A stretch of DNA of 64,000 nt, taken from positions 1-64,000 of the IMG/VR virus record IMGVR_UViG_3300048913_000256. The stretch is one strand, 5' to 3'. Each line of letters begins with the position of its first letter. Position 1 is the first letter of the stretch. This document shows, one piece after another, positions 3,514 through 61,783 of this stretch. The translations under genes were made by a program, and so were the position numbers. Below the pieces are notes generated by a model. That model searched no databases, had not been told where the DNA came from, and saw nothing but the letters and a program-made list of their open reading frames with translations. Origin of the DNA: a virus.

Positions 3514-3522
3514 GGGCCGACG

Positions 3523-3575
3523 CCTCCTCTCGTGTGAAATAGAAAAAGCGCCCTGACCGCGATGGTCGAGCGCTT
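3523..3575 (-). terminator. Hairpin + U-tract + SD module between tRNA-Gly and terL
   Basis: Sense strand reads AAGCGCTCGACCATCGCGGTCAGGGCGCTTTTTCTATTTC...GAGGAGG. A close paralog of this module sits at 57551-57593. Confidence 0.55.
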
Positions 3576-3586
3576 GATTTGCGTTG

Positions 3587-3660
3587 TGGAGTCGGTAGTC
3601 GGAATCGAACCGACGTGTCGCGCTTGGAAGGCGCGTGCTCAACCACTGAGCGATACCGAC
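3587..3660 (-). tRNA. tRNA-Gly (anticodon UCC) with encoded CCA
   Basis: Cloverleaf read by eye: acceptor GTCGGTA/TACCGAC, D stem GCTC/GAGC, anticodon stem CGCGC/GCGCG with loop CTTCCAA, T arm GTCGG-TTCGATT-CCGAC, discriminator T, then CCA. Confidence 0.9.
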
Positions 3661-3672
3661 ACGATTACTTCT

Positions 3673-3731
3673 CCTCACTTATATAGGGGCTGAAAACGCC
3701 ATTTCGGGTAGTCGAAGACGAAATTTCATCG
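3673..3731 (-). promoter_or_regulatory. Late-operon element, copy 1 (candidate activator site plus promoter)
   Basis: The core GCTGAAAACGSCATTTCGGGTAGTC matches 7298-7322 at 24/25 nt. The sense strand carries the inverted repeat ATTTCG-N13-CGAAAT, then TATAAG about 18 nt before the tRNA 5' end. Confidence 0.55.
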
Positions 3732-3801
3732 AAAAAGTTGACGAAATCCTATCAGTGTGACAAAATGAGAGTAACGACACATTGATACGGAGGTTTCCGC
3801 C

Positions 3802-4410
3802 ATGAAAGAAGCCCAACCACTACGCGACGAACGCCATATCGACGCCTTGATCGAGTCCTTGACCGGTCGCGACCTACTCCTGTTCCTCGTCGGCATCCGT
3901 TCTGCCTACCGCGTGAGCGACATTGTTCCGCTTAAACTCGGCACCCTGCGCCATGACTCGCACTATTACGTCATCGAGACGAAGACCGGCAAGACGCGCA
4001 TGATTAAAATCGACGACGACGTCCGTGCGCTTGCTCGCGAGATGCCCGGCGACGACGGCGAATATGCGTTCAAGTCGCGTGAGGGCGAGAACCAACCGAT
4101 CACCCGCCAACAAGTCGACCGCATCCTGAAGGCGGCGCAACAACGGGCGAACGCGCTGTTGAAGTCACGCAAGCAGCCGATTATCGAGCGGCCGATCTCG
4201 GCGCATACGATGCGAAAGACATTCGGATATCACTACTACACGGAGACGCTCGATGTGGCAACGCTGATCCGCGTCTACAACCACTCGTCCTCTGCGATGA
4301 CTCTCGCGTATATCGGGATCACGCAAGACACGATCGACGACGCGGTTGACGTCGTGAGCAAGTTGGGGAAGCGCGCGTTGGCGAAGAGAGGCGTACGGAA
4401 GGCGAAGTGA
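3802..4410 (+). CDS. Tyrosine recombinase, catalytic domain only (202 aa)
   Basis: Catalytic residues: R in GIRSAYRVSD, K in ETKTGKTR, HxxR in AHTMRKTF, H in NHSSS, Y in TLAYIG. GGAGG SD lies 8 nt before the ATG. Confidence 0.85.
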   Translation: MKEAQPLRDERHIDALIESLTGRDLLLFLVGIRSAYRVSDIVPLKLGTLRHDSHYYVIETKTGKTRMIKIDDDVRALAREMPGDDGEYAFKSREGENQPITRQQVDRILKAAQQRANALLKSRKQPIIERPISAHTMRKTFGYHYYTETLDVATLIRVYNHSSSAMTLAYIGITQDTIDDAVDVVSKLGKRALAKRGVRKAK

Positions 4411-4934: not shown

Positions 4935-5330
4935 CTACGCCGTCTCAGCGTCGCTTGCAGATTGGTTACGTTTCATCTCCGCAAGTCTCGCCTTCAGCGC
5001 ATCCACATCGCCCGAGCCATCGGTAACGGTCGTGTTCATCTCGACTTTCTCCGTCAACATGCCGTTTGCTTGCAGGATGAGCTTCGCCGCAGCCGCATTC
5101 CCGCCGATACCGTGATCGATTAACGCTTCCATCAACTCGGGCAAGCGTGCCTGCGTATTCCGCGTAATCTCACGCTTCAACTCGGTTTGGAACGTCTCGT
5201 TGCGCTTCCAATCGTAGATAGTGCGCTCGCCCACGCCTACCTTCTTCGCGATCTCGGCGATCGTAGGCCGCTGTTCCTTCGGCAATGCGAGCAACGCAAT
5301 CGCCTCGTACTGTTCCGTTCTCAACGCCAT
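4935..5330 (-). CDS. terS: Terminase small subunit (HTH type)
   Basis: ATG at 5330 follows AAAGGAGGTGA; the track GTG at 5342 lies inside that SD. N-terminal HTH is PTIAEIAKKVGVGERTIYDWKR. Size and position upstream of terL fit. Confidence 0.7.
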   Translation of the reverse strand: MALRTEQYEAIALLALPKEQRPTIAEIAKKVGVGERTIYDWKRNETFQTELKREITRNTQARLPELMEALIDHGIGGNAAAAKLILQANGMLTEKVEMNTTVTDGSGDVDALKARLAEMKRNQSASDAETA

Positions 5331-5498
5331 TCTTCGTATCACCTCCTTTCACACGATAGTTTCAATCATCGCCTCTATACGCCCTCACACGCCACGATAT
5401 CGCCCACTCGGATACCATCGCACCGGATGCGTATATAAACGCCACCACACGCCTCCTAGACGCCACATAGCGACATATACGAACGAGTGTGCGTGTGC

Positions 5499-5555
5499 TT
5501 AGCGCAGTCCGCGGTCGATATATCGGATGATCTCGAAAACAACCGGTTCACACAT
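5499..5555 (-). CDS. 18-codon mini-ORF (MCEPVVFEIIRYIDRGLR) with a strong SD
   Basis: GAGGAGGTGA + 5 nt + ATG. Too short for the ORF track. It could be a leader peptide or chance. Confidence 0.25.
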   Translation of the reverse strand: MCEPVVFEIIRYIDRGLR

Positions 5556-5575
5556 TCTTGTCACCTCCTCGCGTA

Positions 5576-5836
5576 TTAGCGCCCTATCACGACGTCGACC
5601 ACTGTCTTCCCGACCCTGAACGAATCCCATCCGATGGTTTCGAGATCACGAATGAGTTCGGGCCTATTGCGCCTGATCTCGCTGTAGGACGAGAAAACGC
5701 CCGCATCAACGAGTGCTCGCGGTAAGAATCGCTCATCAGTGCGCAATGTCACCGATGCTTGGTCGAGTCCTAACGACACCAGCGAACATATCGGCTCACC
5801 TACTACGATGACAACGTGCCGGTTGTATTGCGACAT
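5576..5836 (-). CDS. Hypothetical protein (86 aa)
   Basis: ATG at 5836 is preceded by GCGAGGTGA. No recognisable motif. Confidence 0.5.
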   Translation of the reverse strand: MSQYNRHVVIVVGEPICSLVSLGLDQASVTLRTDERFLPRALVDAGVFSSYSEIRRNRPELIRDLETIGWDSFRVGKTVVDVVIGR

Positions 5837-6024: not shown

Positions 6025-6060
6025 TTTATTCTTTATTCTTTTATTCTTAGGTCTTTATTC
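6025..6060. repeat. AT-rich tract with four TTTATTC repeats
   Basis: TTTATTC occurs at 6025, 6032, 6040 and 6054, directly abutting the iterons. Confidence 0.8.
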
Positions 6061-6063
6061 TTT

Positions 6064-6191
6064 GTTACGGTCAAAGTAGGGCGTAACGGTTACGGTGTGA
6101 AAGGGCGTAACAGAAACGCTCGTTACGGTGTAGAAGGGCGTAACATCTGCTCGTGATCACGCTAATGCGTTACGGTTAAATAGGGCGTAAC
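6064..6191. repeat. Four 23-24 bp iterons with palindromic ends (GTTACGGTKW..WAGGGCGTAAC)
   Basis: Units at 6064-6087, 6089-6111, 6122-6144 and 6169-6191. Each is GTTACG-N11/12-CGTAAC. Confidence 0.85.
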
Positions 6192-35825: not shown

Positions 35826-35994
35826 CGGGCGACACCTCCCAGTTATGACGGCGCAGACGTTCGATCGTTTCCTCATCCGCGAGCGCCTCGTAATATCCCC
35901 CGTATTGGGCGTATTTCCCGACGAAAGCACCGAGCGCGGTAAGCGCCCAGTTATCGTCCACTCTCGCACGAATGCGAATTCGTTCGTAGTTCAC
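35815..35994 (-). CDS. Hypothetical protein (59 aa); absent from the ORF track
   Basis: GTG overlaps the upstream stop (GTGA). Sequence MNYERIRIRARVDDNWALTALGAFVGKYAQYGGYYEAL... Confidence 0.45.
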   Translation of the reverse strand: MNYERIRIRARVDDNWALTALGAFVGKYAQYGGYYEALADEETIERLRRHNWEVSPDAV

Positions 35995-37295
35995 GCAACC
36001 TTCGCCTCCTTCTCGCGGTGCTTACTTCGTGCGGCGCGCCACTTCTCGACGTCGTACACGTAGCCGTCGCGGGTGTCGTCGATAACCGTGAATTGTTTCG
36101 TTCCGAGCCAACCTGAACCCCATGTCCCAAGGAACGGCTCTCCGTACATTCGGAATCGAATCGTCGTGTCCCTCGATGTAATTTCGTGAACTCCGCTGGA
36201 GGAGCGGGTTACAACCACATCGCCAACCTGCGCTTCCGTCGGCTCCGGCGCGTTCAGATACTCGCGAGGCACGTCCAATCCGAGAGCGCGGCGCAGGGCA
36301 ATCGCCATTCCGATGTGAGCGTTGAACACGTCGCCGGGCGCACATGTCGCGTAGAACCGTGCCTTGTCACCCATGAAATCGCGAGTCTCTACCACAACGG
36401 TTCGGAACTCTCGGTTGATTCGGAATTTGACGCTAACCTCCTCCCGTTCATCCGATTTGAGCAGGCGCTCAACGTCAACCTTCGCCATCTCGACGATTTC
36501 AGCGCGCGTGTTCGGCGGCTCCGAAACTTTTTCGTCGGATACACCACCCGTTTTCGCGTTTTCAACTAGTCGCGAATGCTTCTGCGCTAGCTTGCGGCGA
36601 TCCTCTTCGCGACGCGCCCGCTCCATCGCGATACCTTCCGCAACGCCGCGATCGAACTCCGCCTTGCGCATGCTGTCGATCTGTTGCGCAATCACCGCGG
36701 CTCCTGCGCTGACTTCGATGGTTGCGCCGAGATTCGTGTGGAGCGTGGCTGTGGGCGCGGATTCGTCAGCGGACGCTTGGCTATCGTCAGCAATCGGAAG
36801 GAGGGCGCGGTACTCGGAGTGCCACATACAGTTGCGATCCCCCGCACGGTCACGAAACGCTACTTTAACTTCGTCGAGATCGATAACCTCGATCACATCG
36901 CCGTTTGCGTAATCGAACGCAAGTTTCGCATCAACAACGAGCACCTTCTCGCCCTCCTGCGCCGCACGTCCGGATTCCGCGAGTTGGTAGCGTGCGTTGT
37001 CGATGACTACGACGTCGGTCGGTTCGAGGACGACGTAATTACTCGGATAGATATTTGCCCCGCCGTGTTCTGAATTCCAACCTTTCGGATGCTTGATGAA
37101 CAGGGCACAGTCGCTACGTACTTCGATAACCTCGTAGACCTCGCCGACGCGGACACGGTGATCACGAGGAACCGTAATCTTAATCGATTCGCCGACATCC
37201 GCCTTCCGCGCCACCTCGCGATACTCGCGCATCACACCGCCAATCGTCGGATCTGCCATTACGTGAACGCCTACTTGCACCGTTTTCATCGCCAT
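35991..37295 (-). CDS. Hypothetical protein (434 aa) with two VAR..GE..GDV.EV..LEP-type domains
   Basis: EVARKADVGESIKITV...VGEVYEVIEV...YVVLEPTD and GRAAQEGEKVLVVD...NGDVIEVIDL. C-terminal CAPGDVFNAHIGMAIALRRALG motif. Confidence 0.6.
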   Translation of the reverse strand: MAMKTVQVGVHVMADPTIGGVMREYREVARKADVGESIKITVPRDHRVRVGEVYEVIEVRSDCALFIKHPKGWNSEHGGANIYPSNYVVLEPTDVVVIDNARYQLAESGRAAQEGEKVLVVDAKLAFDYANGDVIEVIDLDEVKVAFRDRAGDRNCMWHSEYRALLPIADDSQASADESAPTATLHTNLGATIEVSAGAAVIAQQIDSMRKAEFDRGVAEGIAMERARREEDRRKLAQKHSRLVENAKTGGVSDEKVSEPPNTRAEIVEMAKVDVERLLKSDEREEVSVKFRINREFRTVVVETRDFMGDKARFYATCAPGDVFNAHIGMAIALRRALGLDVPREYLNAPEPTEAQVGDVVVTRSSSGVHEITSRDTTIRFRMYGEPFLGTWGSGWLGTKQFTVIDDTRDGYVYDVEKWRAARSKHREKEAKVA

Positions 37296-40138: not shown

Positions 40139-41458
40139 TTACGCTAGATTCGTTTGGTCAGGTAAAAGCTTGAAACGCGGAAACTCTCGCCGTTCAACGT
40201 CATTCGGGCGCAACTCCTCGACACGCTCGAGCAGCTCCGTAAGTGCCGCGATTCCAGTCGCTATGGCGACGACATACTGCTCGTATCCTTCACGCGATAG
40301 CCGCTTGCAGTCTTTCGCAAGTTCCGTGTAGGTTGCGATCTGAGCGATGTATCCAGCGAACTGAATTGATCCTCCGATGAAGACGCTAGACTCACGGAGT
40401 TCGGTGATCTCGAGGTCCCTCCGTTCGATTTCTTCGAGAAGTCGCGCGCGTTCGGCGTCATTGGCGGCGTTATCGAGTTGATTGCTGAGATTCGATCTCT
40501 CGTCGATGAGGCGGTCAATTTTCGCATCCCTCTCCTTGACCTCGTTACCCTTCTCGACGATCTCCTCGTTGAGTTCGCGTACGATGCGCTTGGCGTCGTT
40601 AAGTTCACTTTCGAGGTATTTGATGCGCTGCACGTCCTCGGGCGATCGCTCACCTACCGGTTTCTGGCGCGCCATCGTGAGGTCGCGGTTCAGCTCGTCG
40701 ACTGTGTTGCGAGATTGCGTGAGCTGGCGCGTGAGATCCTCGATCGTGGCGGCGTTGCGCGATGCAGCGTCTTGTGCGGTCTTTACTTTGTCGTCCATTT
40801 CGGCGCGGATCTTCTTCGCCTCGGCGACGGTGACTTTCTTCGTGTACTCGCGGATACCGTCATAGGCGCGTTGCTGCGCTTCAGGCGAGAGACAAGCGAA
40901 CTCGTACGCAGCGGTTGCGTTGAGTTCGCCTTTCTCGACCATGAGTTCGAGCGGGCGGATGAGTTCGTTGAGTTTGTCCAGTTTATCTACCATAGAGCCG
41001 GATACGCCCACCTCATTAGCGACGATGTCTCGCGTATTCCCTTTTAACTCCTGTGAATTATTATCAGGAGTCGTGTCGAGATCCGAGCGTTTCCCCTGAC
41101 GGTTTCCGATCAATTGCTTCTTGCGTCGAATCGCCTTCGCCATTTCCATATGGGTAAGCGTCCTAGTCCGCGTGTTCGCGTCGATCAGCGCTTCCTCGGC
41201 CTCACTCGCATCACGGAACTCTCGAATAATGCACGGAACCTCGTCCCACTCAAGAATACGCGCCGCTCTCGTACGCTGGTGTCCAGAGATGATCGTGAAG
41301 GACACGCCGTCGCGGATTACGACAACCGGATGTTGCATCCCGAGAGACTCGATACTTCCCGCCAATTCACCGAGTTCCTCTTCGTCAAGTGTGCGGAAAA
41401 AGTTGCGCGGGTGCTCTTTCAGTTGCTCTATCGGAATCATCGTGATCTTTTCGCTCAT
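40139..41458 (-). CDS. ParB-like nuclease-domain protein with a long coiled coil
   Basis: IPIEQLKEHPRNFFR...IISGHQRTRAA (ParB N-terminal domain). GGGAGGA SD before ATG 41458. Confidence 0.7.
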   Translation of the reverse strand: MSEKITMIPIEQLKEHPRNFFRTLDEEELGELAGSIESLGMQHPVVVIRDGVSFTIISGHQRTRAARILEWDEVPCIIREFRDASEAEEALIDANTRTRTLTHMEMAKAIRRKKQLIGNRQGKRSDLDTTPDNNSQELKGNTRDIVANEVGVSGSMVDKLDKLNELIRPLELMVEKGELNATAAYEFACLSPEAQQRAYDGIREYTKKVTVAEAKKIRAEMDDKVKTAQDAASRNAATIEDLTRQLTQSRNTVDELNRDLTMARQKPVGERSPEDVQRIKYLESELNDAKRIVRELNEEIVEKGNEVKERDAKIDRLIDERSNLSNQLDNAANDAERARLLEEIERRDLEITELRESSVFIGGSIQFAGYIAQIATYTELAKDCKRLSREGYEQYVVAIATGIAALTELLERVEELRPNDVERREFPRFKLLPDQTNLA

Positions 41459-41471
41459 TGTCGTATCCTCC

Positions 41472-42071
41472 CTATCGCGCCACGCGGCTCGTGTGCTTCG
41501 ATTTTTCACGCAGATACTGTTGGTGGTTCTTGAACAGCTCAGGCGCTAGGTTCACGACTTCACGCGATGAGAGTTCGAGATCCGCATCCGTACGATAGAG
41601 CGCTCTTTGCTCGGCGGTAAGACCGGGATTGCGTGCGGATACGCCGGTGAAGTGCTCACGAACTTCCTCGCGAAGTTCGAACAGACGCTCCTCTGAAGCT
41701 TCAAACGGGAGGGCTGCGTCGCCGATCGCCTCTACGCGGCCGTCGAGCGACTCCGAGTGCTCACGATCCTTCTTCCCTTTGTCGAGGAGATCGTAGACTC
41801 GCGAAGTGACTGCGCGGGTAAGTACTTTGATGAACGGTCCCTTGTCAGCGGAAGTGTATCGGCGGACCTCGTTCCAGACAGCCTCGAGATAAGCGGATTC
41901 GATGTCGCACGGATCAAGCGATTTGAATTTCGAGAAGGTTGCGAACGTTTTCGCCTTATGCTCGTCTAACTTCGCGATGAGCCGGTTAAACTGAGAATCA
42001 TCGGAACGTGTGAGGCCGCGATTTGCTGCGAGTGCCAGAGCGGTGATCGTTGCAGAGTTTGCGTTTTTCAT
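41472..42071 (-). CDS. Putative ECF-sized sigma-70-family factor (early regulator)
   Basis: Region-2-like IESAYLEAVWNEVRRY...FIKVLTRAVTSRVYDLL and region-4-like LTAEQRALYRTDADLELSSREVVNL. First gene of the leftward operon leaving the immunity region. Confidence 0.4.
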   Translation of the reverse strand: MKNANSATITALALAANRGLTRSDDSQFNRLIAKLDEHKAKTFATFSKFKSLDPCDIESAYLEAVWNEVRRYTSADKGPFIKVLTRAVTSRVYDLLDKGKKDREHSESLDGRVEAIGDAALPFEASEERLFELREEVREHFTGVSARNPGLTAEQRALYRTDADLELSSREVVNLAPELFKNHQQYLREKSKHTSRVAR

Positions 42072-43107: not shown

Positions 43108-44361
43108 ATGCACTTAACTGGCGATCAGATTAAAGTTAGACGAAAGGAATTAAACTTGTCACAGAAACAACTCGCTGATCTCGCGGGGGTATCACGAAGT
43201 TATATTGCACAGATTGAGGCCGGCACGGCTACAAATGTCTCTGACGAGCACGTCCGTAGTATCGCTGCGGCCTTAATGCTACCGACAACGGAACAAACTG
43301 GCGATGACAACATCCCACTAACCGTTCGAATCGCACAACTGCAAGTCGACTTCGAATCGAATGAGCATGACTTGGCGTTGATGATTTCGCGAGCAGCCGA
43401 AATTGAGCGTTGTCTTGCGACTGACCGACGATCCGTTCACGCAGGTGATTTATTCACGTTATCAGCTCGTATGCTTCGTAAAAAAGGAGATTACTCTTCC
43501 GCCTATCGACACGCTTACGATGCGCAATCAGCCTATTCACTCTGCTCCGAAGTATACCGATGGTGCAAGGCTACCTACGAAATAGCGAGTATAGATTTCT
43601 ATAAATCAGAATATGGACATGCTATAGAACTATTTCGACAAATTGACACGCGCCTGCGTGAAACTGGGTTTCCTGATGACACTTTCAAAACACAACTGTA
43701 CGTGTCACTAGCTACCGCACTATCGGCTATCGGGGAGGTGGATGAAGCAATTTCCTTTGCGATGCGTGTAGAAGGCAATATCGAGTTCATTGAGGAGACG
43801 CAAAGGGATCGAGTTCGCGCCAACAATAACTACTTGCGTGGAATTGCTTCAGCCTCGACTGGTTCGTTTGAGGACGCTCTACGTTTTCTTAACATTGCAC
43901 TCGCACAATTCGAGGATATAAGCGATGGTCGAAATGTGTTGCGTATGAAAAATAATATTGCTCGCTTGTACTTCAAAAAAGGCGACATTCAGTACGCAAC
44001 CGAACTAGTTGAGAACATTCGAAATCTGGATAACTTCTCATCTCTTCCGTGGGACGACACATCTGAAACTATTTTACTTTTAGCTCAAATCGCTGAAGCC
44101 CGGTCGCACTTTCCTGTTGCGGTCGAAAATTGCGAATACTTAATCAAAAAAGGGGCAGATCCCGCCACAATGGCAAGAGCACATAGAGTCCTTGCATGGT
44201 GCTCCTACAAAGAGGGAAATCTTAGCGGTTTCAACAAGAGTATTACTGACGCACTCACCGCTCTCGATAATGCCCCTTTCCAAAAAGTGTTGGGGTTCGA
44301 ACTAATGCGTGAGTATATGATCGTTAACCATAGGCCAGATAGCCTTGTTCTAAAATTATAA
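43108..44361 (+). CDS. HTH(XRE)-TPR receptor-type regulator (RNPP/AimR-like architecture)
   Basis: N-terminal LSQKQLADLAGVSRSYIAQIEAG, followed by ~350 aa of TPR-like helical repeats (e.g. FEDALRFLNIALAQF, NIARLYFKKGDIQYATELVENI). Confidence 0.7.
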   Translation: MHLTGDQIKVRRKELNLSQKQLADLAGVSRSYIAQIEAGTATNVSDEHVRSIAAALMLPTTEQTGDDNIPLTVRIAQLQVDFESNEHDLALMISRAAEIERCLATDRRSVHAGDLFTLSARMLRKKGDYSSAYRHAYDAQSAYSLCSEVYRWCKATYEIASIDFYKSEYGHAIELFRQIDTRLRETGFPDDTFKTQLYVSLATALSAIGEVDEAISFAMRVEGNIEFIEETQRDRVRANNNYLRGIASASTGSFEDALRFLNIALAQFEDISDGRNVLRMKNNIARLYFKKGDIQYATELVENIRNLDNFSSLPWDDTSETILLLAQIAEARSHFPVAVENCEYLIKKGADPATMARAHRVLAWCSYKEGNLSGFNKSITDALTALDNAPFQKVLGFELMREYMIVNHRPDSLVLKL

Positions 44362-44393
44362 AAACCACGATCCGCTATGGACGTGGTTTTTTT
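44359..44393. terminator. Bidirectional terminator between the receptor gene and the peptide gene
   Basis: AAAAACCACG-loop-CGTGGTTTTTTT. Confidence 0.75.
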
Positions 44394-44404
44394 GATTCTC
44401 CCTT

Positions 44405-44578
44405 TTATACTGTATATGATCCGGGAAGCGGTGGTTGCCAATCAGCTACTTTATCGCTCTGGTACGCACCCGGAAGCGGCGGTTGATACTCGGATACCTT
44501 CGCAACCTCTACGCCACCGGCCGCCACTAGCGCCACCAGCGCGATCCCCGCCATCCATCGTTTCATTTTCGTCATCAT
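44405..44578 (-). CDS. 57-aa secreted pro-peptide with a tandem QPPLPG(A/S)Y repeat; absent from the ORF track
   Basis: GGGGGA + 8 nt + ATGATG. Sequence MMTKMKRWMAGIALVALVAAGGVEVAKVSEYQPPLPGAYQSDKVADWQPPLPGSYTV. TATAAT (sense) at 44621-44626. Confidence 0.6.
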   Translation of the reverse strand: MMTKMKRWMAGIALVALVAAGGVEVAKVSEYQPPLPGAYQSDKVADWQPPLPGSYTV

Positions 44579-46439: not shown

Positions 46440-46679
46440 CTATCTTTGCGAGAGTCCTAATAGGCGCATGGACGGCTCTCTACGCTTCTCTGGCGGCTTT
46501 TCATCGGGCACAACGACTACCGGAGGCGACACAACCTCGCCGCGCTCGCGCGCCATGTAATCGCGGATCGCGCGGCGCAGCGTTTCGTTTCGCCGATTGC
46601 GCGGCTTGCTGGCGATCCAATCGATAATGTCGCGGTCGAGGTCGAGGTCGAGCGGCAACTGCTGGATCTTGTCGGCCAT
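46440..46679 (-). CDS. parR: Ribbon-helix-helix protein, ParR-like adaptor
   Basis: DLDRDIIDWIASKPRNRRNETLRRAIRDYM (RHH pattern). Located immediately downstream of the ParM-like gene. Confidence 0.5.
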   Translation of the reverse strand: MADKIQQLPLDLDLDRDIIDWIASKPRNRRNETLRRAIRDYMARERGEVVSPPVVVVPDEKPPEKRREPSMRLLGLSQR

Positions 46680-46684
46680 AGCGT

Positions 46685-47734
46685 CTACTCCGCCGTAACT
46701 GGCGATTCTGCACGCCCCAAGAACAGCCCGTAGCGATAGAATCCGACCGCGTTCGCTTCTTGTGCGTTCTCAACAACGACGATATCCGGGTGCCACCCGC
46801 GGAGAACCTCGACGATTTGCGGGATTGCTGCACCGCCGCCGGTCAGCAGGATCTTATCGAACTTGGCGCGATCCTTCCAGCGGGCGTTGATTGCCGTTTT
46901 GACGCGACCTGCGAGGTTACGGAACGCCGTATCGACAATCTCGGTGATGTCGACCTTGTAGTTGTTGTTTACGATATAGCGAATGGCGTTGGTACCGGCG
47001 AGCTGTTTCTTGACGCGCGGGGCAGACGCTTTGATTGCCGCGTCCTTCGCGTTAAGCCAGTTCGCGATTTCTTGATAGACCGTGTTGATGCCGAGATCAA
47101 ACGTATCAGTGTCAAGTGGTTCGCGCAAGAGTTCCTTTATGCCGTCAATGTCCGTCGTTCCGGATCCGATGTCGATTACGCCAATATAGCCAAACTCGTA
47201 AGAATCATCGGCGACATACCCGTCTTCGTCGAGGTAGCACGCCAATACGGAGCCAAGCGGCTGCGGCAGTACCTGAACGTCGGTCACGTTGAGCATCTTC
47301 TGGCCGCCCTCGACGTCGATGTAGTGCGCTCCCTTGTAAACCGCGATGATATCGTTCTCAAGCGGAGTTTTGATCTCGTTAGAAGGAACGCCAGTGATGA
47401 TGCGAACCTCAACGATACCGTCCGGCGCGAGCGCAGCCAGAATCGCCTCGGAGAGGATTTGATATTCACGTTGTTTGTAGCGGTCAACTGTCGCGAGTGT
47501 GGCGATCGGGTTCGCTACCTTGTGGATCTCGTCGCCCCACACGATAGACTCGTTGGTGCGCCCAACTTTATAGGTACGCAGGGACGGCGAGCCGGTGCCG
47601 CCCCCGATCGCGATTACTTCTTGCGGGACATCGCCCGGAAGCGCGTACTCGCTAGGGCGCAGAATCGTCGCATGTTTGGAAATCGCCTTTACATAGCCGT
47701 TGCCGTGATCGATACCCATCGCCAATTTCGTCAT
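46685..47734 (-). CDS. parM: Actin-like segregation ATPase (ParM/Alp family)
   Basis: Phosphate-1 GIDHGNGYVKA, phosphate-2 VIDIGSGTTDI, adenosine LLTGGGAA. ATG at 47734 follows GGAGG. Confidence 0.8.
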   Translation of the reverse strand: MTKLAMGIDHGNGYVKAISKHATILRPSEYALPGDVPQEVIAIGGGTGSPSLRTYKVGRTNESIVWGDEIHKVANPIATLATVDRYKQREYQILSEAILAALAPDGIVEVRIITGVPSNEIKTPLENDIIAVYKGAHYIDVEGGQKMLNVTDVQVLPQPLGSVLACYLDEDGYVADDSYEFGYIGVIDIGSGTTDIDGIKELLREPLDTDTFDLGINTVYQEIANWLNAKDAAIKASAPRVKKQLAGTNAIRYIVNNNYKVDITEIVDTAFRNLAGRVKTAINARWKDRAKFDKILLTGGGAAIPQIVEVLRGWHPDIVVVENAQEANAVGFYRYGLFLGRAESPVTAE

Positions 47735-47888
47735 GAGTCGAAAACCTCCGTTTTTGTATGCGGTTTTATATAAAACTGCGGGTGATAAGTACATCATAGC
47801 GCGGTTGGGCGGATTTGGCAATAGTATACGCGTTCTCAATATGGCACTTTTATATAGAACTTCATTGGTTGGAGTTTTTGGCGTATCT

Positions 47889-47975
47889 TGTGGATTTTGT
47901 GGATAAAGTCGATGTTATCCACAACTCAATTTTAATCGCCGTCTCGATATTCGCATTCCCTTGCGGATATCCACA
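47889..47975. promoter_or_regulatory. DnaA-box cluster (putative origin or centromere-proximal region)
   Basis: TGTGGATTT at 47889, TGTGGATAA at 47898 (perfect), TTATCCACA at 47915 (perfect), ATATCCACA at 47967. An AT-rich tract lies just to the left. Confidence 0.6.
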
Positions 47976-48303
47976 GCTCGTGGTAATGTAGAAGCAATAC
48001 AATCTACCAAAATTCGACTATCACCAAAATTACATAGAGTACGTTCAGACCACGCACTTCGTGTTTTGCGCCAACAGAACATGAAAAAGGGTTCCTCCGC
48101 CAAGAGGAACCCCGTGGTTGCACCGAAACCGTCGAAAGAAGCGGTGCACAAGACATCAAACTGTTACCCTTATTGTAGCCAAATTCCGGCTTATAATCAA
48201 GGGGTTACGGCACATTTAACGAGCCTTCTCGTTGGATTAGAGCCGATCTTGTGCGACTACGTCCTTCTGACGGTAATCGTGCGGATCGGCTCTTTTGCGT
48301 ATC

Positions 48304-48333
48304 TCGGACAACACCGCCCATTAGCGCGAGATC
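48304..48333 (+). promoter_or_regulatory. Phage promoter-like motif, copy I (plus strand)
   Basis: tcggacaacaccgcccattagcgcgagatc, 40 nt upstream of ATG 48374. Confidence 0.55.
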
Positions 48334-48373
48334 TCCGACGACTACGTATATCCACGAGGAGGCTTATTCCGTT

Positions 48374-49579
48374 ATGGCTACTATCGAACAAGTGGCGCAT
48401 CTCCAGTCGTTCCCGTCAGTCGAGGCGATGGATGCGCATCTCCAACGTTTCTTCACGCTGTCCAAGCACCAACTCAGCGACACCCGTCGCAAGGTTCTCG
48501 AATACATGCAGACTCGCGCCGTCAAGGTCGTCGGTGTATGCAACGCAAAGGTGCGCACGATCGCGGCGGCCGTCGGTTGCAGCACGCGAACCGTCCAGCG
48601 AGCGATAGACTTCGCGGTTGACTGCGGCCTGATTCGCGAGGAGCTTCGGTGGCACGAGAACGGCGCACAGGCGTCGACCGTGTACGTTTTTCAGAACGAA
48701 TTGTCAGGAGGGTTGTCACCCTCCCCTGTCACCCCATATACGCTTTTAGATCTTTCACACTCTTCTGCTACACCAAAACCTACAGAGGTAATCGTAAACG
48801 ACGTCCGCGACTGCGATTCGAAATTTGATTCGATGACTTTTATTCCGAGCTACATCCCGAGAAACTTCGCCTATCACGCACATCTCTACTTCGGCGATCC
48901 GGTTGAAGTTACCGCACTTTGGCGAGCTGCGGTCGAAGGGTTCCGAGTACTCGGCGAGAAGGTCGACGCTGTTTTCGCTTGTGGCGCACTCACCGACGCG
49001 ATCGTCAGCAAGCAGTACAAAGACGAGAAGGGCGAACCGGTCCGCAACTTCCGCTCGTTCTTTAAGGGCGCGCTCATCCGCATTTTCCGCCGGTTGGAAG
49101 AGAACGAGGCGGTGCGCCAGCAGAACGCGGAGAACGCCCCTATCCGCCAGTTTGCACAGAAGTCTGCCGTCCCAAACGTAAGCACCGACGCGCTTGACGA
49201 ACTCCTGCGTATGAAAGCCGCCGCACTCGAATCAGATCCGCAAGCGGACGAACCTGTCGTGCAACCATCCGCAGACGACCGCGAGGATGCGCTCATCGCC
49301 GAAACCCTACGTTCCGAAACGCACCACACCGCGCGCGCAAAATGGATCGATGTCCTTTCCGCTGCCGCCGTGCAAGTCTCGCCAAGCGCATATCAGCGCT
49401 GGTGGTCGCAGTCACGCGGGGTCGCGGAGGTTGACGGAAAGTTGATCGTGGCAGTAGATACGGAGATGGAGCGCGGTTGGTTGGAGACATACGCGAGAAC
49501 AATTGCGGAATTAGCGCAGCAACCGGTCCGTATCGTCGTCTCCTCTACCGCTCCCCTTTCGACAACGACGGCAGGCTGA
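48374..49579 (+). CDS. Rep-like winged-helix protein (candidate plasmid-mode initiator)
   Basis: GAGGAGG SD. wHTH segment RKVLEYMQTRAVKVVGVCNAKVRTIAAAVGCSTRTVQRAIDFAVDCGLI. Adjacent to the DnaA boxes. Confidence 0.5.
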   Translation: MATIEQVAHLQSFPSVEAMDAHLQRFFTLSKHQLSDTRRKVLEYMQTRAVKVVGVCNAKVRTIAAAVGCSTRTVQRAIDFAVDCGLIREELRWHENGAQASTVYVFQNELSGGLSPSPVTPYTLLDLSHSSATPKPTEVIVNDVRDCDSKFDSMTFIPSYIPRNFAYHAHLYFGDPVEVTALWRAAVEGFRVLGEKVDAVFACGALTDAIVSKQYKDEKGEPVRNFRSFFKGALIRIFRRLEENEAVRQQNAENAPIRQFAQKSAVPNVSTDALDELLRMKAAALESDPQADEPVVQPSADDREDALIAETLRSETHHTARAKWIDVLSAAAVQVSPSAYQRWWSQSRGVAEVDGKLIVAVDTEMERGWLETYARTIAELAQQPVRIVVSSTAPLSTTTAG

Positions 49580-60900: not shown

Positions 60901-61783
60901 AGATATCGGACTGTGCCTGCTGGTTGAACTGACCGAACTTCGTTTTCAGTACGTCGATTACAGATGCGATGTCCTTCAACTTACCGGACGCATCGAAGAA
61001 GACGTTTTTGTTGTCCGCCGTGATGAGGCCGAACTCTTTGAACAGTTCCGTAGCTTCCTTTGTCGAGGGCAGTAGGTTTTGAAGCATCGTCTTGTAGGAC
61101 GTGCCTGCGTCGGAGCCTTTCAATCCTGCGTTATGGAGTAACCCAAGCGCTGCGACAAGGTCGTTGAACGATTGACCTGTACCATTGGCGACCGCTTGCG
61201 ACTGCGCGAGCGCCATGCGAATATCTCCGATAGAACCTGCGGCCGCGTTTCCTACACCGACGATTGTGTTCGCGATCTGCGAGTAACCGCCTACGGCGTC
61301 CTTATACACGTTCTTGACGGTAGCAAGCGTTTCGCCCGCGTCCGCCATCGAAATCTCGCCAGCCTTCGAGAGCGCAACCATCGCCTCACCGCCGCCGTCG
61401 AGTACGTCTTTGAGTTGCCCGCCCGCCTTGATGATGTCGCCCATACCGGCGACGATGGAAGCGCTGGAATCGCCGAACTCTGCCGCGAGCTTCATCGCCG
61501 AGTCCTGCATCTGCTTGAGTTGCGCGTCGGTTGCCTGCGCCGCTACCTGTGCGTTCTTCGACTGTTGCTCGAACTGCTTATACTTCTCGATGACTTGCGT
61601 GAACGCGACGCCGATCCCGCCCATTGCCGCAATTCCGCCGAGCGTGTTACGGAGTTCCGCAGAAACAGTCTTCGAGACGTCTTGTAAGTCCTTGAGGTCC
61701 TTCTGCGCCCGTTGCGAATTGCGACTCCACTCAGACGAGTCAAGTCGGAGGCGTGCTAAGATGTCGCCAATCACGATGGACAA
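57971..61783 (-). CDS. Tail tape measure protein
   Basis: ~1270 aa and highly helical, with a hydrophobic central segment. GAGGAGG + 9 nt + TTG at 61783. Confidence 0.85.
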   Translation of the reverse strand: MSIVIGDILARLRLDSSEWSRNSQRAQKDLKDLQDVSKTVSAELRNTLGGIAAMGGIGVAFTQVIEKYKQFEQQSKNAQVAAQATDAQLKQMQDSAMKLAAEFGDSSASIVAGMGDIIKAGGQLKDVLDGGGEAMVALSKAGEISMADAGETLATVKNVYKDAVGGYSQIANTIVGVGNAAAGSIGDIRMALAQSQAVANGTGQSFNDLVAALGLLHNAGLKGSDAGTSYKTMLQNLLPSTKEATELFKEFGLITADNKNVFFDASGKLKDIASVIDVLKTKFGQFNQQAQSDIFSRLFGSDSSRAALAFMQATTQQINDMRSALTSTSAVDQARDRIDTLNGSIEKSKAAFENMAISIGSIFVPAINELGLEMGAITSLFSQMSDAQKSSASETVKQVVQIGLLATAFGTTYGAVKLVLPAIASATVAMTGLGTAATVAAGPWGAIATVIGLVATAAVGYTVEAEKARMEQQEQDKQIVSLANRYDKLIAVTKSSTASDQEKTAAQQELKSVIKEIGALHPEIIGQLDAEGNAVSLNTAAYYELAKAKRASVLQDLQTDFIKATNDLSAAKQKSANLDWTKVTGPDAGRYLEEQQKALKSVTDAQNKLKQLNAQMAQLNGEASNEPYVDSRANHAKNAYATPPGGSSTTGEKSYGSQSWAAPVDGPKGKSAEDLAREADAAMRESYEASRAYSKQLLDAGQIDLEQYIEREKNTRTAYADWLKGHAADQYRIDNDIAKGAFTYSSEWIAEQKSAMQERGATAAEVAAFEIESWNRVASRENLLAEDRKTALASLKQAQHDAAAASFADSVQWINAKKLTMQDEGKSAIEIADMELQSWERVYARKAQLNAEDAAQARENAESAKRALTQAIAADLKQAREMQRNSILDAQEKANKSAEDAIQAKIDALDREESAQQRLLEIEKDRKRLADLQDQRAKTAADKRFSLIERDASGQLVERKVADLEKLSDLDEQIADQQENIAEKARQGAIKANRDALEKELKDTRDKNSQRLAALKAFYDQWTTDDKVNADTRALVQQNGLQRTLADVEKYLADMKAAYTRVQNEIMLQGSLFPPQSVPNSPNSSQYGPPVPAGSKQSVIDQMNANSARWASATPAEQAQLHDANIKLGDSIGGKYNDKTGQWTFHDGGIVGTRIGGDEVIAKLKIGELVLNERQQREAFGEARKQSALKSLGSMMADPFTAPPPTLSRDAAASSAGVREVVNSNTTNNSSFTFHIDARGATDPQIDKRIEEGVDRAIRAYDQKLAHSWK

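Follow-up and report, generated by a model that had tools for sequence, protein, structure and literature searches.

Organization of the parMR-rep locus

The window that we analyzed, a stretch of 64,000 nucleotides with a GC content of 56.5%, comes from a 68-kb tailed phage whose host is Paenibacillus-like. In it, parM and parR lie divergent from rep, a predicted initiator gene, across a noncoding region whose measured length agrees with the ~640 bp reported in an earlier note on this DNA (Table 1). That note had described the layout of a low-copy plasmid replicon and partition locus, and we found all of the elements that it listed, with slightly shifted coordinates. The module is, as had been claimed, separate from the lytic replication genes, and the genome also encodes an RNR, ThyX, a methyltransferase, and a full replisome.

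Table 1. Features of the module and of related genes elsewhere in the window
Feature	Position	Strand	Description
parR	46440-46679	-	79 aa; predicted RHH centromere-binding adaptor, then Pro/Lys-rich linker and short C-terminal tail
parM	46685-47734	-	349 aa; actin-like partition ATPase; ALP/ParM superfamily, BtParM/Alp7A-like branch
Noncoding spacer	47735-48373		639 bp
Candidate parC site A	47760-47779		Palindrome GCGGTTTTATATAAAACTGC; between parM -10 box and RBS
parM promoter	47793-47821	-	TTGCCA, 17-nt spacer, TATGAT; promoter scan, 10/12 matches
Candidate parC site B	47844-47863		Imperfect palindrome GCACTTTTATATAGAACTTC; upstream of parM -35 box
DnaA-box cluster	47889-47975		Five boxes, two perfect and three degenerate
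DnaA box 1	47889-47897	-	2 mismatches
DnaA box 2	47898-47906	-	Perfect
DnaA box 3	47915-47923	+	Perfect
DnaA box 4	47962-47970	-	2 mismatches
DnaA box 5	47967-47975	+	1 mismatch
Putative rep promoter	47961-47989	+	TTGCGG, 17-nt spacer, TGgTAATGT (extended -10); overlaps boxes 4 and 5
Direct repeats	48006-48031	+	Two copies of ACCAAAATT (48006, 48023), 17-bp spacing
Predicted ctRNA unit	48078-48200	-	Promoter and ~85-nt RNA with two stem-loops and terminator
ctRNA terminator hairpin	48113-48088	-	Followed by U-tract TTTTTCATGTT
ctRNA promoter	48200-48172	-	TTGATT-17-TACAAT; promoter scan
Structured 3' part of rep leader	48217-48364	+	Folding
rep	48374-49579	+	401 aa; predicted initiator
Rep winged HTH	48374-48703		aa 1-110; HTH_36/DnaD_N type
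Rep linker	48704-48820		aa 111-149; disordered
Rep helical domain	48821-49168		aa 150-265
Rep C terminus	49340-49543		aa ~323-390; DnaA-domain-I-like
Tyrosine recombinase	3802-4410	+	202 aa; catalytic domain alone, Xer-like; outside the module
DnaC-like, DnaB-like, primase, PolA	25.8-35.7 kb		Lytic replication genes
"Organizer"	35991-37295		434 aa; lytic replication gene in the earlier note

A candidate ParMRC partition cassette

The identification of an actin-like ParM with three nucleotide-binding motifs was borne out. The protein matched the Pfam families ALP_N (3.8e-20), MreB-like_C (4.9e-12), Alp7A_like_C (1.5e-8), and the ParM C-terminal domain (1.5e-6), all four scores exceeding the family cut-offs, as well as a PHROG labeled "partition protein" (4.8e-52) and, as the top solved structure, 3js6 "ParM" (1.6e-22). 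Its phosphate-1 (DHGN), phosphate-2 (DxGxGTxD), and adenosine (TGGG) motifs were invariant in an alignment of 23 sequences. Translation starts at an ATG with GGAGG ahead of it.

The gene that begins 5 nt downstream of parM had been called an RHH ParR-like gene. In five relatives a small gene occupies this position, with a product 39 to 47% identical to ParR, and a profile of all six sequences matched RHH chains, including 2jd3 StbB and CopG-family chains. The best PDB match of the profile was 2q2k (E 0.0024), which we take to be the RHH domain of pSK41 ParR bound to centromere DNA and which links the cassette to pSK41 ParMRC. ParR also matched PHROG 38823 (2.3e-12), and its single-sequence AF2 model has an extended N terminus and two helices.

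Two palindromes with the core TTTTATATAAAA, 84 bp or eight helical turns apart, bracket the parM promoter. The paired-site design recurs in five related parM loci: L009 has the core in the identical position upstream of parM, L011, L003, L014, and L015 have analogous paired sites there, and in L011 the sequence TTGCCA...TAATAT lies between the two parC-like sites. Judged from this arrangement, the flanking palindromes are likely to be the centromere, and together with ParM and ParR they probably constitute a type II (ParMRC) partition cassette. RHH-fold dimers of ParR would bind both palindromes, repressing parMR and assembling a complex that captures ParM filaments, and ParM polymerization would then drive sister copies apart.

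DnaA boxes at the putative rep promoter

Two perfect and two near-perfect DnaA boxes had been reported in the spacer. Both perfect copies of TTATCCACA, 17 bp apart, stood, but the near-perfect class turned out to be one box with a single mismatch and two with two mismatches. No other perfect TTATCCACA occurs in the 64 kb (0.16 expected from shuffles), and Monte Carlo sampling gave P values of ~9e-4 for two random sites within 30 bp and ~3e-4 for three of the eight matches with ≤1 mismatch falling within 80 bp. The AT-rich tract noted beside the boxes is also present, with GC falling to 30 to 35% at 47820-47880 and 47980-48040, compared with 56.5% for the window. The direct repeats, likewise present, might bind Rep or act as weak DnaA-like sites, two copies being a weak signal. 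Apart from these two 9-bp repeats we found no iteron array in the module, which counts against the plasmid reading.

The rep genes of L009, L011, L014, and L038, unrelated in sequence, are preceded at ~330 to 400 bp by DnaA-box clusters, which in the first three overlap a TGGACA-18-TAGAAT promoter. The spacing between box half-sites varies by element (8 nt, overlapping, 0 nt, or 6 nt), which fits reading of each 9-mer by a protein monomer, as with DnaA, better than by a dimeric operator protein. The putative rep promoter of the window was placed by reading the sequence and by analogy to these three promoters; the promoter scanner did not report it, and its poor consensus match also counts against the plasmid reading.

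Transcription of rep would start at a promoter embedded among boxes for host DnaA, which may either help to open an adjacent AT-rich origin or tune rep transcription. The boxes may be regulatory rather than the origin itself, since those of the relatives sit on the rep promoter and the iterons lie inside rep. In L009, L011, and L014 the box pair overlaps the -35 box of that promoter, and their rep genes carry four to six direct repeats in the central linker-coding part, comparable to the internal origin in rep of pSK41 (PMC5703833). In the window, too, boxes overlap the best candidate rep promoter, GC falls to 40 to 48% at 48734-48883 within rep, and TGTCA occurs three times at 48701-48732. 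We give somewhat less than even odds to the idea that the boxes form a promoter-proximal operator or titration site coupling rep transcription to host DnaA, with the origin elsewhere, most likely within the rep linker-coding stretch, as in RepA_N plasmids. Against it, no clear iteron array is present inside the window rep, AT-rich tracts adjoin the boxes, and L038 and L009 have boxes downstream of rep too, which a purely promoter-operator role leaves unexplained.

A structured rep leader and a predicted counter-transcript

The minus-strand hairpin and U-tract in the earlier note proved real and has its own promoter inside the rep leader. The predicted counter-transcript (ctRNA) unit had no Rfam match. 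Folding of the entire leader gave a z-score of -7.45, and two fold tests of its structured 3' part gave scores of -6.4, for the sequestered SD, and -4.1. In this part an anti-SD segment (48217-48238) is predicted to pair with the rep SD region (48345-48364), enclosing a terminator-like hairpin (48239-48293) that is followed by TTTTGCG. The ~380-nt leader would fold to bury the ribosome-binding site and a counter-transcript would be made from its opposite strand; Gram-positive theta plasmids, among them pSK41 and pIP501, control their copy number by this logic. RNAI of pSK41 is an antisense RNA of ~83 nt with two stem-loops whose target in the rep leader lies ~100 nt before the start, and its action results in sequestration of the RBS (PMC5703833), much like the predicted ~85-nt two-stem-loop RNA and sequestered SD of the window.

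Rep is a predicted winged-helix initiator

We took the ATG at 48374, with the RBS GAGGAGG, as the rep start and rejected a GTG at 48251. The description of rep as a divergent Rep-like winged-helix gene held, with a Pfam HTH_36 match of 3e-10 and matches to PHROG replication-initiation families across the winged-HTH region. AF2 modeled the winged-HTH and helical domains confidently, DnaD_N was among the structural matches, and the top PDB fold match was domain I of Bacillus subtilis DnaA (4tps_D). We therefore predict rep to be a DnaD_N/HTH_36-type winged-helix initiator gene. Its C-terminal domain resembles DnaA_N (Pfam E 0.004) and may recruit replisome-loading factors, but the sequence scores are subthreshold and this part of the model has low pLDDT, which we counted against the plasmid reading. 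So did we count its near-orphan status: Rep matches no curated Rep family and has no full-length homologues, and its best matches reach ~30% identity across the 240 aa at the N terminus.

The N- and C-terminal domains of pSK41 Rep resemble DnaD, and the pPR9 variant, a real plasmid initiator, has a working pfam13730 N-terminal domain (PMC5703833). Rep of the window differs in not being RepA_N and in having no Rep boxes that we could find inside its gene. The window also has DnaA boxes, whereas staphylococcal plasmids were reported without detected ones (PMC5703833), and pSK41 is a staphylococcal plasmid whereas the window element is a phage.

The closest ParM relatives are on extrachromosomal elements

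The closest ParM relatives (40 to 46% identity) are encoded on ~44- to 69-kb extrachromosomal phage-like elements of Brevibacillus, Aneurinibacillus, and Bacillus, closed or plasmid-sized (PMC9867215). Extrachromosomal relatives comprise CP085875, CP085877, pAT1, B. mycoides p52, and 37- to 54-kb contigs of the B. cereus group; more distant ParM homologues occur in chromosomes without phage context, which counts against the plasmid reading. The closest group in both ParM (40 to 46%) and ParR (40 to 47%) consists of CP085875, a 61.6-kb extrachromosomal element of Brevibacillus sp. HD3.3A, its 58- to 61-kb metagenomic relatives, and Aneurinibacillus thermoaerophilus pAT1. Like the window, these have the two-site parC design and a rep promoter with DnaA boxes, downstream of which comes a long leader bearing antisense signals, and they too carry phage tail and lysis genes (PMC9867215). 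They differ in their myovirus-like tails, with baseplate J and sheath initiator genes, in having FtsK/Replic_Relax genes, and in their rep genes, which are unrelated in sequence, contain internal iterons, and stand several kilobases away from parM instead of diverging from it.

The gene set of the window phage has been documented in the circular B. cereus-group plasmid prophages vB_BtS_B83, whose DNA was detected in the plasmid fraction, and IEBH, which is listed as experimentally proven (PMC6669507, PMC8026635). Elements of the B83/IEBH/p52 type resemble the window phage in being siphoviruses and in encoding a ParM-like protein, a small RHH adaptor, a replication initiator, an Xer-type tyrosine recombinase, and a regulator of the HTH-TPR/arbitrium type, and they have repeats upstream of parM (PMC6669507, PMC8026635). 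The window and p52 share the gene order AimR, large winged-HTH gene divergent from parM-parR, endolysin, holin, and tail genes, and their ParR proteins are 40% identical. ParM of these prophages is just ~38% identical to that of the window, however, their Rep has no detectable similarity, and no DnaA boxes lie close to the module of p52. The window phage is further set apart by its 56.5% GC, Halcyonevirus-like backbone, full replisome, RNR, ThyX, and methyltransferase.

The cultured phage Tripp of Paenibacillus larvae (Halcyonevirus) has a backbone collinear with that of the window phage, with identities of 61% for TerL, 35% for portal, 35% for tail tube, 24% for TMP, 29% for the DnaC-like protein, 32% for primase, 37% for PolA, 45% for the Cas4-like protein, and 33% for dUTPase. 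In the slot between the lysis and early genes, Tripp has a full-length, 392-aa integrase with a repressor and an excisionase-like module. In the window phage this slot is taken by rep, parMR, and an HTH-TPR regulator, which supports the reading as a phage-plasmid.

Genome closure and lifestyle of the phage

The genome is a 68,283-bp circle in two independent assemblies, circularly permuted relative to each other; inspection for host junctions, as the earlier note had advised, found no host DNA. TerL is 61% identical to that of phages packaging via direct terminal repeats (DTR) (PMC6070908), so circular assemblies are expected even without a plasmid state. Cumulative GC skew has its raw minimum at 49.4 kb and its detrended minimum at 37.8 kb; it does not single out the module, which counts against the plasmid-module reading.

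The gene lists of the genome include no full-length integrase, and the sole recombinase, a candidate multimer resolvase, adjoins a complete tRNA-Gly gene. Such a pairing can mark an attP site and was counted against the plasmid reading. The phage might be an ordinary integrating one that uses this recombinase at a tRNA-Gly-related site, with ParMR a relic or put to other use and "Rep" a transcription regulator, a scenario compatible with the circular assemblies that DTR virions would give (PMC6070908). Above threshold, moreover, Rep matches generic winged-HTH families alone, and PHROG 1835, one of its matches, is labeled just "HTH DNA binding protein". We consider this unlikely: the recombinase is without the arm-binding and core-binding domains that phage integrases have at the N terminus and best matches Xer models, and the Logan assembly is continuous through the recombinase-tRNA-TerL region. 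Neither parM nor parR is disrupted, every catalytic motif is present, and the centromere-like design is conserved; the leader with its counter-transcript is organized as is typical for plasmid rep genes and not for repressors, and cassette-bearing relatives are extrachromosomal in closed genomes (PMC9867215).

Still less probable, in our estimate, is a mainly lytic role, in which Rep initiates with the phage DnaC, DnaB, primase, and PolA while ParM positions replicating or packaging DNA, like the cytoskeletal proteins of some large phages. SPO1-like and Bastille-like Bacillus phages, which are strictly lytic, have ParM-like genes, a helicase loader, a helicase, a primase, and a polymerase are all encoded by the window phage itself, and its "organizer" belongs to no recognizable family and has no recognizable initiator domain. 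The ParMs of lytic phages, however, are just 23 to 30% identical to that of the window, whereas the relatives at 40 to 46% are without exception encoded on plasmid-like elements and retain the RHH partner. In addition, rep lies on the strand opposite to the lytic genes and adjoins lysogeny regulators, and throttling by an antisense RNA suits low-copy maintenance, not burst replication.

The P1 prophage is a low-copy plasmid with an oriR-repA initiator gene by DnaA boxes, parABS partition, and Cre/lox. The window shares this functional logic of an initiator gene by DnaA boxes, an active partition operon next to it, and a tyrosine recombinase for resolving dimers. P1 uses type I ParA/ParB, an iteron-binding RepA with handcuffing control, and full-length Cre, whereas the window has type II ParM/ParR and a putative antisense RNA and lacks an iteron array.

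The analysis shows the gene identities, the positions and statistics of the motifs, the RNA folds, the circular closure, and the synteny with relatives; we infer the binding events and the origin position in the module, and likewise the plasmid state of the phage itself. The earlier phage-plasmid proposal is supported by the extrachromosomal ParM relatives, the circular closure, and the position of the module in the Tripp integrase slot. At a probability of about 0.7, the phage is a temperate siphovirus, probably kept as a low-copy circular plasmid whose multimers the Xer-like recombinase would resolve, and the interval is its prophage-state maintenance module. It most likely persists as a plasmid because a ParM-type partition cassette and a tightly regulated rep replace the integrase of its cultured relative, and the module is most likely of the ParM/RHH plasmid-prophage kind, a lifestyle already known from Bacillus phages.

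The phage genome closes as a circle

The window covers 64,000 bp of a siphovirus-type phage genome that is 68,283 bp long, and nearly all of its genes lie on the minus strand. These encode the portal, large terminase, a methyltransferase, ribonucleotide reductase, ThyX and dUTPase; a family A DNA polymerase, primase, DnaB-like helicase, DnaC/IstB-like loader and ParB_N protein; and an endolysin, BhlA holin, tail proteins and the tape-measure protein. The tailed-phage structural, packaging and lysis set is complete (TerL, portal, scaffold, MCP, tail terminator, tube, TMP, tail proteins, holin and endolysin). The ParB_N protein, encoded in the early region without a ParA partner, matched the NCBIfam Noc model at 2.7e-19 and fell just under the cut-off for parB_part; possible roles are those of a nuclease, of a Noc-like protein or of a second factor in DNA segregation. 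Coordinates are collected in the table.

The earlier note had asked whether the genome closes as a circle or runs into host DNA. It closes, at 68,283 bp. Two assemblies recovered the same genome: the JGI contig measures 68,410 bp, and Logan contig SRR35925505_42775 measures 68,312 bp. The ends of the Logan contig overlap by exactly 29 nt, at a junction that falls inside the tape-measure gene and is continuous in the window, and the contig joins the two ends of the window through 4,283 nt, at L016 4712-8994, encoding minor capsid, scaffold, major capsid and connector proteins. The lengths agree (64,000 + 4,283 = 68,283 = 68,312 - 29). The JGI contig exceeds 68,283 bp by 127 nt, an excess that we attribute to a k-mer overlap. 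Both assemblies, which are circularly permuted relative to each other, thus give a circular map, and host DNA was absent from both.

A circular assembly alone does not prove a plasmid, because the type of large terminase points to direct-terminal-repeat packaging, and virion DNA with such repeats would give the same circular assembly. The enzyme is 61% identical to those of Paenibacillus larvae Halcyone-cluster phages, whose DNA is packaged with 377-378-bp direct terminal repeats (PMC6070908). Virions of the window phage are predicted to carry direct terminal repeats too.

GC skew on the reconstructed 68,283-bp circle was ambiguous: the raw cumulative curve has its minimum at 49.4 kb, and detrending moves it to 37.8 kb. 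The detrended minimum (37,782) sits just upstream of the block formed by a 434-aa gene and the DnaC-like and DnaB-like genes, and it may mark the lytic origin.

A maintenance cassette lies where a relative carries an integrase

Synteny with the P. larvae phage Tripp (Halcyonevirus) is, on sequence comparison, the strongest contextual argument for a plasmid state. The window is collinear with Tripp over the packaging, head, tail, lysis, replication and nucleotide-metabolism genes. Between the lysis and early genes, Tripp carries a 392-aa integrase with repressor and excisionase-like genes, whereas in the window that slot is filled by rep, parMR and an HTH-TPR regulator. On a single conserved chassis, the relative has an integrase and the window phage a cassette for plasmid maintenance, a clean module swap. 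Plasmid-type replication and partition genes are present in the form of parMR and a predicted rep with plasmid-style antisense control, Rep being the presumed initiator. In phage Halcyone, which is integrase-less, the products of gp25/gp24 (337 aa and 94 aa) had been guessed to be a parMR pair; this was ruled out on checking.

As to integration, the sole recombinase in the genome is a 202-aa tyrosine recombinase consisting of the catalytic domain only. Its best NCBIfam matches are Xer models, all under cut-off, and its gene adjoins a complete tRNA-Gly(TCC) gene. In the literature on Bacillus plasmid prophages, Xer-like genes have been ascribed to multimer resolution and are stressed as non-diagnostic (PMC8026635). 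Flanked by the large terminase and recombinase genes, the tRNA-Gly(TCC) gene is in a region across which the assemblies are continuous; it could be a phage tRNA or the marker of an att or dif-like site.

The HTH-TPR regulator, an HTH_3 and TPR protein, resembles RRNPP/AimR-type receptors; it reached no NCBIfam AimR model. Convergent with its gene is a 57-aa ORF, the last in the string of genes on the parM strand. Its N-terminus resembles a signal peptide and (E/D)(Y/W)QPPLPG(A/S)Y occurs in it twice, which makes the ORF a candidate for a secreted pro-peptide with two mature signals.

Coordinates of features in the window and in related elements
Element	Feature	Position	Strand	Detail
Window	tRNA-Gly(TCC) and recombinase region	3587-4410
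Window	Tyrosine recombinase	3802-4410
Window	ParB_N protein	40139-41509		456 aa
Window	HTH-TPR regulator and pro-peptide ORF region	43108-44578		regulator on + strand, 417 aa
Window	Candidate pro-peptide ORF	44405-44578	-	57 aa
Window	parR	46440-46679		79 aa; immediately downstream of parM
Window	parM	46685-47734	-	349 aa; ATG start preceded by GGAGG
Window	Palindrome	47760-47779		GCGGTTTTATATAAAACTGC
Window	parM promoter	47821-47793		TTGCCA-17-TATGAT
Window	AT-rich tract	47820-47880		30-35% GC
Window	Palindrome	47844-47863
Window	DnaA box, two mismatches	47889
Window	DnaA box, perfect	47898	-	TTATCCACA
Window	DnaA box, perfect	47915	+	TTATCCACA
Window	Putative rep promoter	47961-47989		TTGCGG-17-TGgTAATGT; weak match
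Window	DnaA box, two mismatches	47962
Window	DnaA box, one mismatch	47967		ATATCCACA
Window	AT-rich tract	47980-48040		30-35% GC
Window	Terminator	48113-48088	-	11-bp stem, then UUUUUCAUGUU
Window	Antisense promoter	48200-48172	-	TTGATT-17-TACAAT
Window	rep start	48374		RBS GAGGAGG; 401 aa
Window	Candidate internal origin in rep	48701-48883		40-48% GC; TGTCA x3; GGAGGG-N6-CCCTCC hairpin
Window	Junction of Logan contig	61507-61535
L003 (pAT1)	CRISPR array	346-705		six RF01315 repeats
L009	BsrG-like RNA	2641-2943		104.8 bits
L009	DnaA boxes	4077, 4190, 4199		before DnaD_N/HTH_36 gene; perfect box just after gene
L009	Internal rep repeats	5004-5114
L011	DnaA boxes	5232, 5241, 5275
L011	rep leader	5300-5590
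L011	Internal rep repeats	6036-6174
L014	DnaA boxes	3467, 3476
L014	rep leader	3490-3790
L014	Internal rep repeats	4210-4311

An actin-like ParM and a ribbon-helix-helix ParR

ParM was above cut-off for four Pfam models (ALP_N, MreB-like_C, Alp7A_like_C and the ParM C-terminal domain) and, among the PHROGs, matched family 691 ('partition protein', 4.8e-52). Of solved structures, 3js6, an entry deposited under the name ParM, is closest (1.6e-22), and the Clostridium ParMs 6ixw and 6izr were weaker PDB matches. Against the NCBIfam ParM equivalog model it scored 239 bits, below the cut-off of 417 bits, and so is a family relative rather than an equivalog. The phosphate-1, phosphate-2 and adenosine motifs were invariant in a 23-sequence alignment. 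An actin-like ParM with all three nucleotide-binding motifs, as had been described from the sequence, is thus borne out by domains, structure match and motifs alike.

ParR had no Pfam or NCBIfam match, and it was modelled from a single sequence only because the word-index search returned just the query (searches of this kind with Rep and ParR found no protein besides the queries themselves). The AlphaFold model, of low confidence, has an extended N-terminus, two helices and a disordered tail, and would be compatible with a ribbon-helix-helix monomer. In five related elements a small gene likewise comes after parM, with synteny kept, and its product shares 39-47% identity with ParR. A six-sequence ParR profile searched against the PDB found ribbon-helix-helix proteins, the best being 2q2k (E 0.0024), followed by CopG-family chains and 2jd3 StbB. 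We take 2q2k to be the pSK41 ParR-centromere complex. Conserved synteny, identity and the profile matches all support the earlier proposal of a ribbon-helix-helix ParR-like gene downstream of parM. The 276-aa gene downstream of parR proved unrelated to the 276-aa gene of the A. thermoaerophilus element pAT1. Neither Rep nor ParM gave a relative in scans of IMG/VR, and in PLSDB the only blastn match to the module was a 139-bp part of parM.

Two AT-rich palindromes bracket the parM promoter, with their centres 84 bp apart; there are only these two sites. We extracted the 330 bp upstream of parM from five relatives for comparison, and all five had the same design: a site or cluster 110-155 bp before the ATG, another 25-47 bp before it and a promoter between. 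The core TTTTATATAAAA is common to the window and the 61.5-kb relative L009, and the Brevibacillus element L011 has TTTTAATAAAA. The palindromes are the likely centromere (parC) and candidate ParR sites, with this comparative pattern as the best available evidence. In such a putative type II (ParMRC) partition system, ParM filaments capped by ParR would segregate the DNA. Conservation of the parC design across relatives would be a modestly new feature.

Rep has a winged helix and probably a DnaA-domain-I-like tail

Rep matched Pfam HTH_36 at 3e-10 and, below threshold, DnaA_N over residues 323-382 (E 0.004). PHROG 1835 spans residues 2-242, and several 'replication initiation' PHROGs match the winged-helix region only. 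An exhaustive HMMER search of 1.8 billion representatives gave matches of at most about 30% identity, almost all to the N-terminal 240 residues. The AlphaFold model, run with a 60-sequence alignment, consists of a confident winged-helix domain (residues 1-110), a disordered linker (111-149), a confident helical domain (150-265) and a low-confidence C-terminus with alpha-alpha-beta-beta-alpha-beta order. The HTH_36 match and the modelled domain agree with the winged-helix, Rep-like gene of the earlier note.

In a Foldseek search of the PDB, the top match of Rep was B. subtilis DnaA domain I (4tps_D, E 0.016, TM-score 0.53 target-normalised), and DnaD_N (2v79) was also among the matches. When the C-terminal 99 residues were searched against the PDB with phmmer, 4tps ranked third, without significance (E 1.1). 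The C-terminus has a probable DnaA-domain-I-like fold, and such a tail is possibly a modestly new feature. Rep had no Rep_3 match, only HTH_36 and DnaD_N-like folds, and in Pfam no RepA_N or PriCT_1 match. Its N-terminal domain is pfam13730, as is that of the pPR9 hybrid initiator (PMC5703833). No meaningful similarity was found between Rep and the divergent winged-helix protein of the B. mycoides element p52, or among the relatives' rep-like proteins compared all against all, where the best pair (L011 and L014, both Brevibacillus elements) shared 22% identity over 68 aa at E about 0.01.

The predicted control of rep resembles that of pSK41

A minus-strand promoter inside the rep leader and a terminator on the same strand predict an RNA of ~85 nt with two stem-loops. 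The hairpin and U-tract previously suggested to end a counter-transcript thereby gain, in silico, an 11-bp stem and a promoter of their own. On the plus strand, 47990-48380 folds far better than shuffles (z = -7.45). The last 170 nt of the leader form a three-way structure in which, at minimum free energy, the SD pairs with an upstream CCUUCUC (z = -6.4); this pairing encloses a hairpin followed by UUUUGCG (z = -4.1). The spacer matched no Rfam family at the gathering threshold or at E <= 5.

In pSK41, an ~83-nt RNAI with two stem-loops acts ~100 nt upstream of the start and leads to sequestration of the RBS (PMC5703833). The ~85-nt two-stem-loop RNA and sequestered SD of the window match this logic in silico, and the control of rep also resembles pIP501-type attenuation (PMC5703833). 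A leader with antisense promoter and terminator, and an RBS-sequestering structure before rep, are features of antisense-controlled Gram-positive theta replicons (pSK41 RepA_N, Inc18 pIP501) seen here in silico only. In L009, too, the scanner called a comparable promoter on the antisense strand; those of L011 and L014 are proposed from by-eye sequence reading only. The ~300-nt rep leaders of L011 and L014 share long conserved stretches, e.g., GAAAGCCGACCGG...CAGTGACCAGGCTTTCCGATCGGCTA, although the two Rep proteins are barely related. This leader may be a conserved regulatory RNA without an Rfam family.

DnaA boxes recur at rep promoters of related elements

The perfect DnaA box occurs exactly twice in the window, where 0.16 would be expected from shuffles. 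The two perfect boxes of the earlier note stand, and one box with one mismatch and two with two mismatches bring the total to five in 87 bp. Under random placement, two sites <=30 bp apart have P about 9e-4, and three of the eight matches with <=1 mismatch would fall inside 80 bp with P about 3e-4. The cluster adjoins an AT-rich region of the spacer, as in DnaA-assisted iteron theta replicons (P1 oriR / F oriS type), and the origin candidate put forward earlier, the boxes with the adjacent AT-rich tracts, is a reasonable one.

Clustered boxes are also found in the ParM-bearing elements L009, L011 and L014, in each of which a box pair overlaps a TGGACA-18-TAGAAT promoter. The B. cereus group element L038 has an inverted pair ~340 bp before its RepA_N-like gene and a palindromic pair past the stop. 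The rep-like proteins of these box-bearing relatives have essentially no sequence similarity to each other. DnaA boxes are thus recurrent in related elements but not universal, since such boxes are lacking in pAT1 and p52. A dimeric phage operator was considered for the TGTGGATA repeats and rejected: the half-site spacing varies, and the 9-mer recurs beside unrelated regulators. Because the 9-mer stays constant while half-site spacing and neighbouring proteins vary, we infer that its most economical reader is DnaA, a host factor that binds each 9-mer as a monomer.

DnaA-box pairs inside the rep promoter, sometimes with extra boxes 3' of the gene, would allow host DnaA to gate replication of the prophage-plasmid. 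The probable DnaA-domain-I-like fold of Rep might bind DnaA's host partners (DnaD, helicase, regulators) or pair with box-bound DnaA. To our knowledge, no plasmid or phage initiator mimicking DnaA domain I has been described. We offer the joint proposal, that Bacillales phage-plasmids with unrelated initiators share promoter-embedded DnaA-box gating and that the window Rep bears its own DnaA domain-I fold, tentatively, at roughly three chances in ten. The pBtoxis replicon has been described as having putative DnaA boxes (PMC6199540), and according to a 2017 review none had been detected in staphylococcal plasmids (PMC5703833); their presence at rep promoters across unrelated initiators would be modestly new.

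The relatives' rep genes carry four to six direct repeats in the linker-coding middle, which resemble pSK41-type internal origins. In L009, L011 and L014 these repeats, of 21-36 bp, lie in the part that codes for an acidic linker and are probably internal origins in the pSK41/RepA_N style. The window rep has a GC dip in its linker-coding part and no clear iterons. No direct-repeat array of at least three iterons was found in the spacer or rep, only two 9-bp direct repeats; the linker-coding DNA at 48701-48883 is a candidate internal origin. By the tests applied to its sequence, the window replicon falls outside the iteron/Rep_3 and RepA_N families. It would work like a hybrid, with pSK41-style control and predicted DnaA-assisted initiation.

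Relatives among plasmid prophages

The closest ParM relatives are encoded on elements that are extrachromosomal or of plasmid size: one of 61.6 kb in Brevibacillus HD3.3A, extrachromosomal and bearing phage genes (PMC9867215); one of 44.6 kb in strain DP1.3A; pAT1; Brevibacillus contigs of 58 kb, assembled independently, that carry baseplate genes; p52, whose local gene order is that of the window; and contigs of plasmid size (37-120 kb) from GTDB genomes. Homologues at a greater distance (about 34% identity) also occur in chromosomes without phage context. Near its parMR, the phage-plasmid-like pAT1 has two LexA-like repressors and an Abi_2 gene, as well as a CRISPR array. In L009, the maintenance module is adjoined both by AgrB/LytTR quorum-sensing genes and by a strong Rfam match to the BsrG toxin/antitoxin RNA.

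The published signature of circular plasmid prophages of Bacillus (B83, IEBH) comprises a ParM-like protein, a ribbon-helix-helix adaptor, a Xer-type recombinase, an initiator and a peptide-sensing regulator, all in a siphovirus, and B83 DNA was located in the plasmid fraction of lysogens (PMC6669507, PMC8026635). The window element is a probable, sequence-distant addition to these prophages on a different phage backbone, and its host probably belongs to a different family from theirs. It would extend the ParM/ribbon-helix-helix plasmid-prophage lifestyle, mostly known from the Bacillus cereus group, to a phage of high GC content that is uncultured and whose backbone is Paenibacillus-type and Halcyonevirus-like. 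Circular contigs of this type of ~50-70 kb would best be annotated as phage-plasmids, not as plain 'plasmids' or 'phages'. With its 3.1 kb, the module might serve as a stable low-copy replicon in Paenibacillaceae or Brevibacillus and might become a cloning tool. The DnaA boxes at rep promoters and the domain-I-like end of Rep bear on how replication of such elements may be coupled to the host cell cycle.
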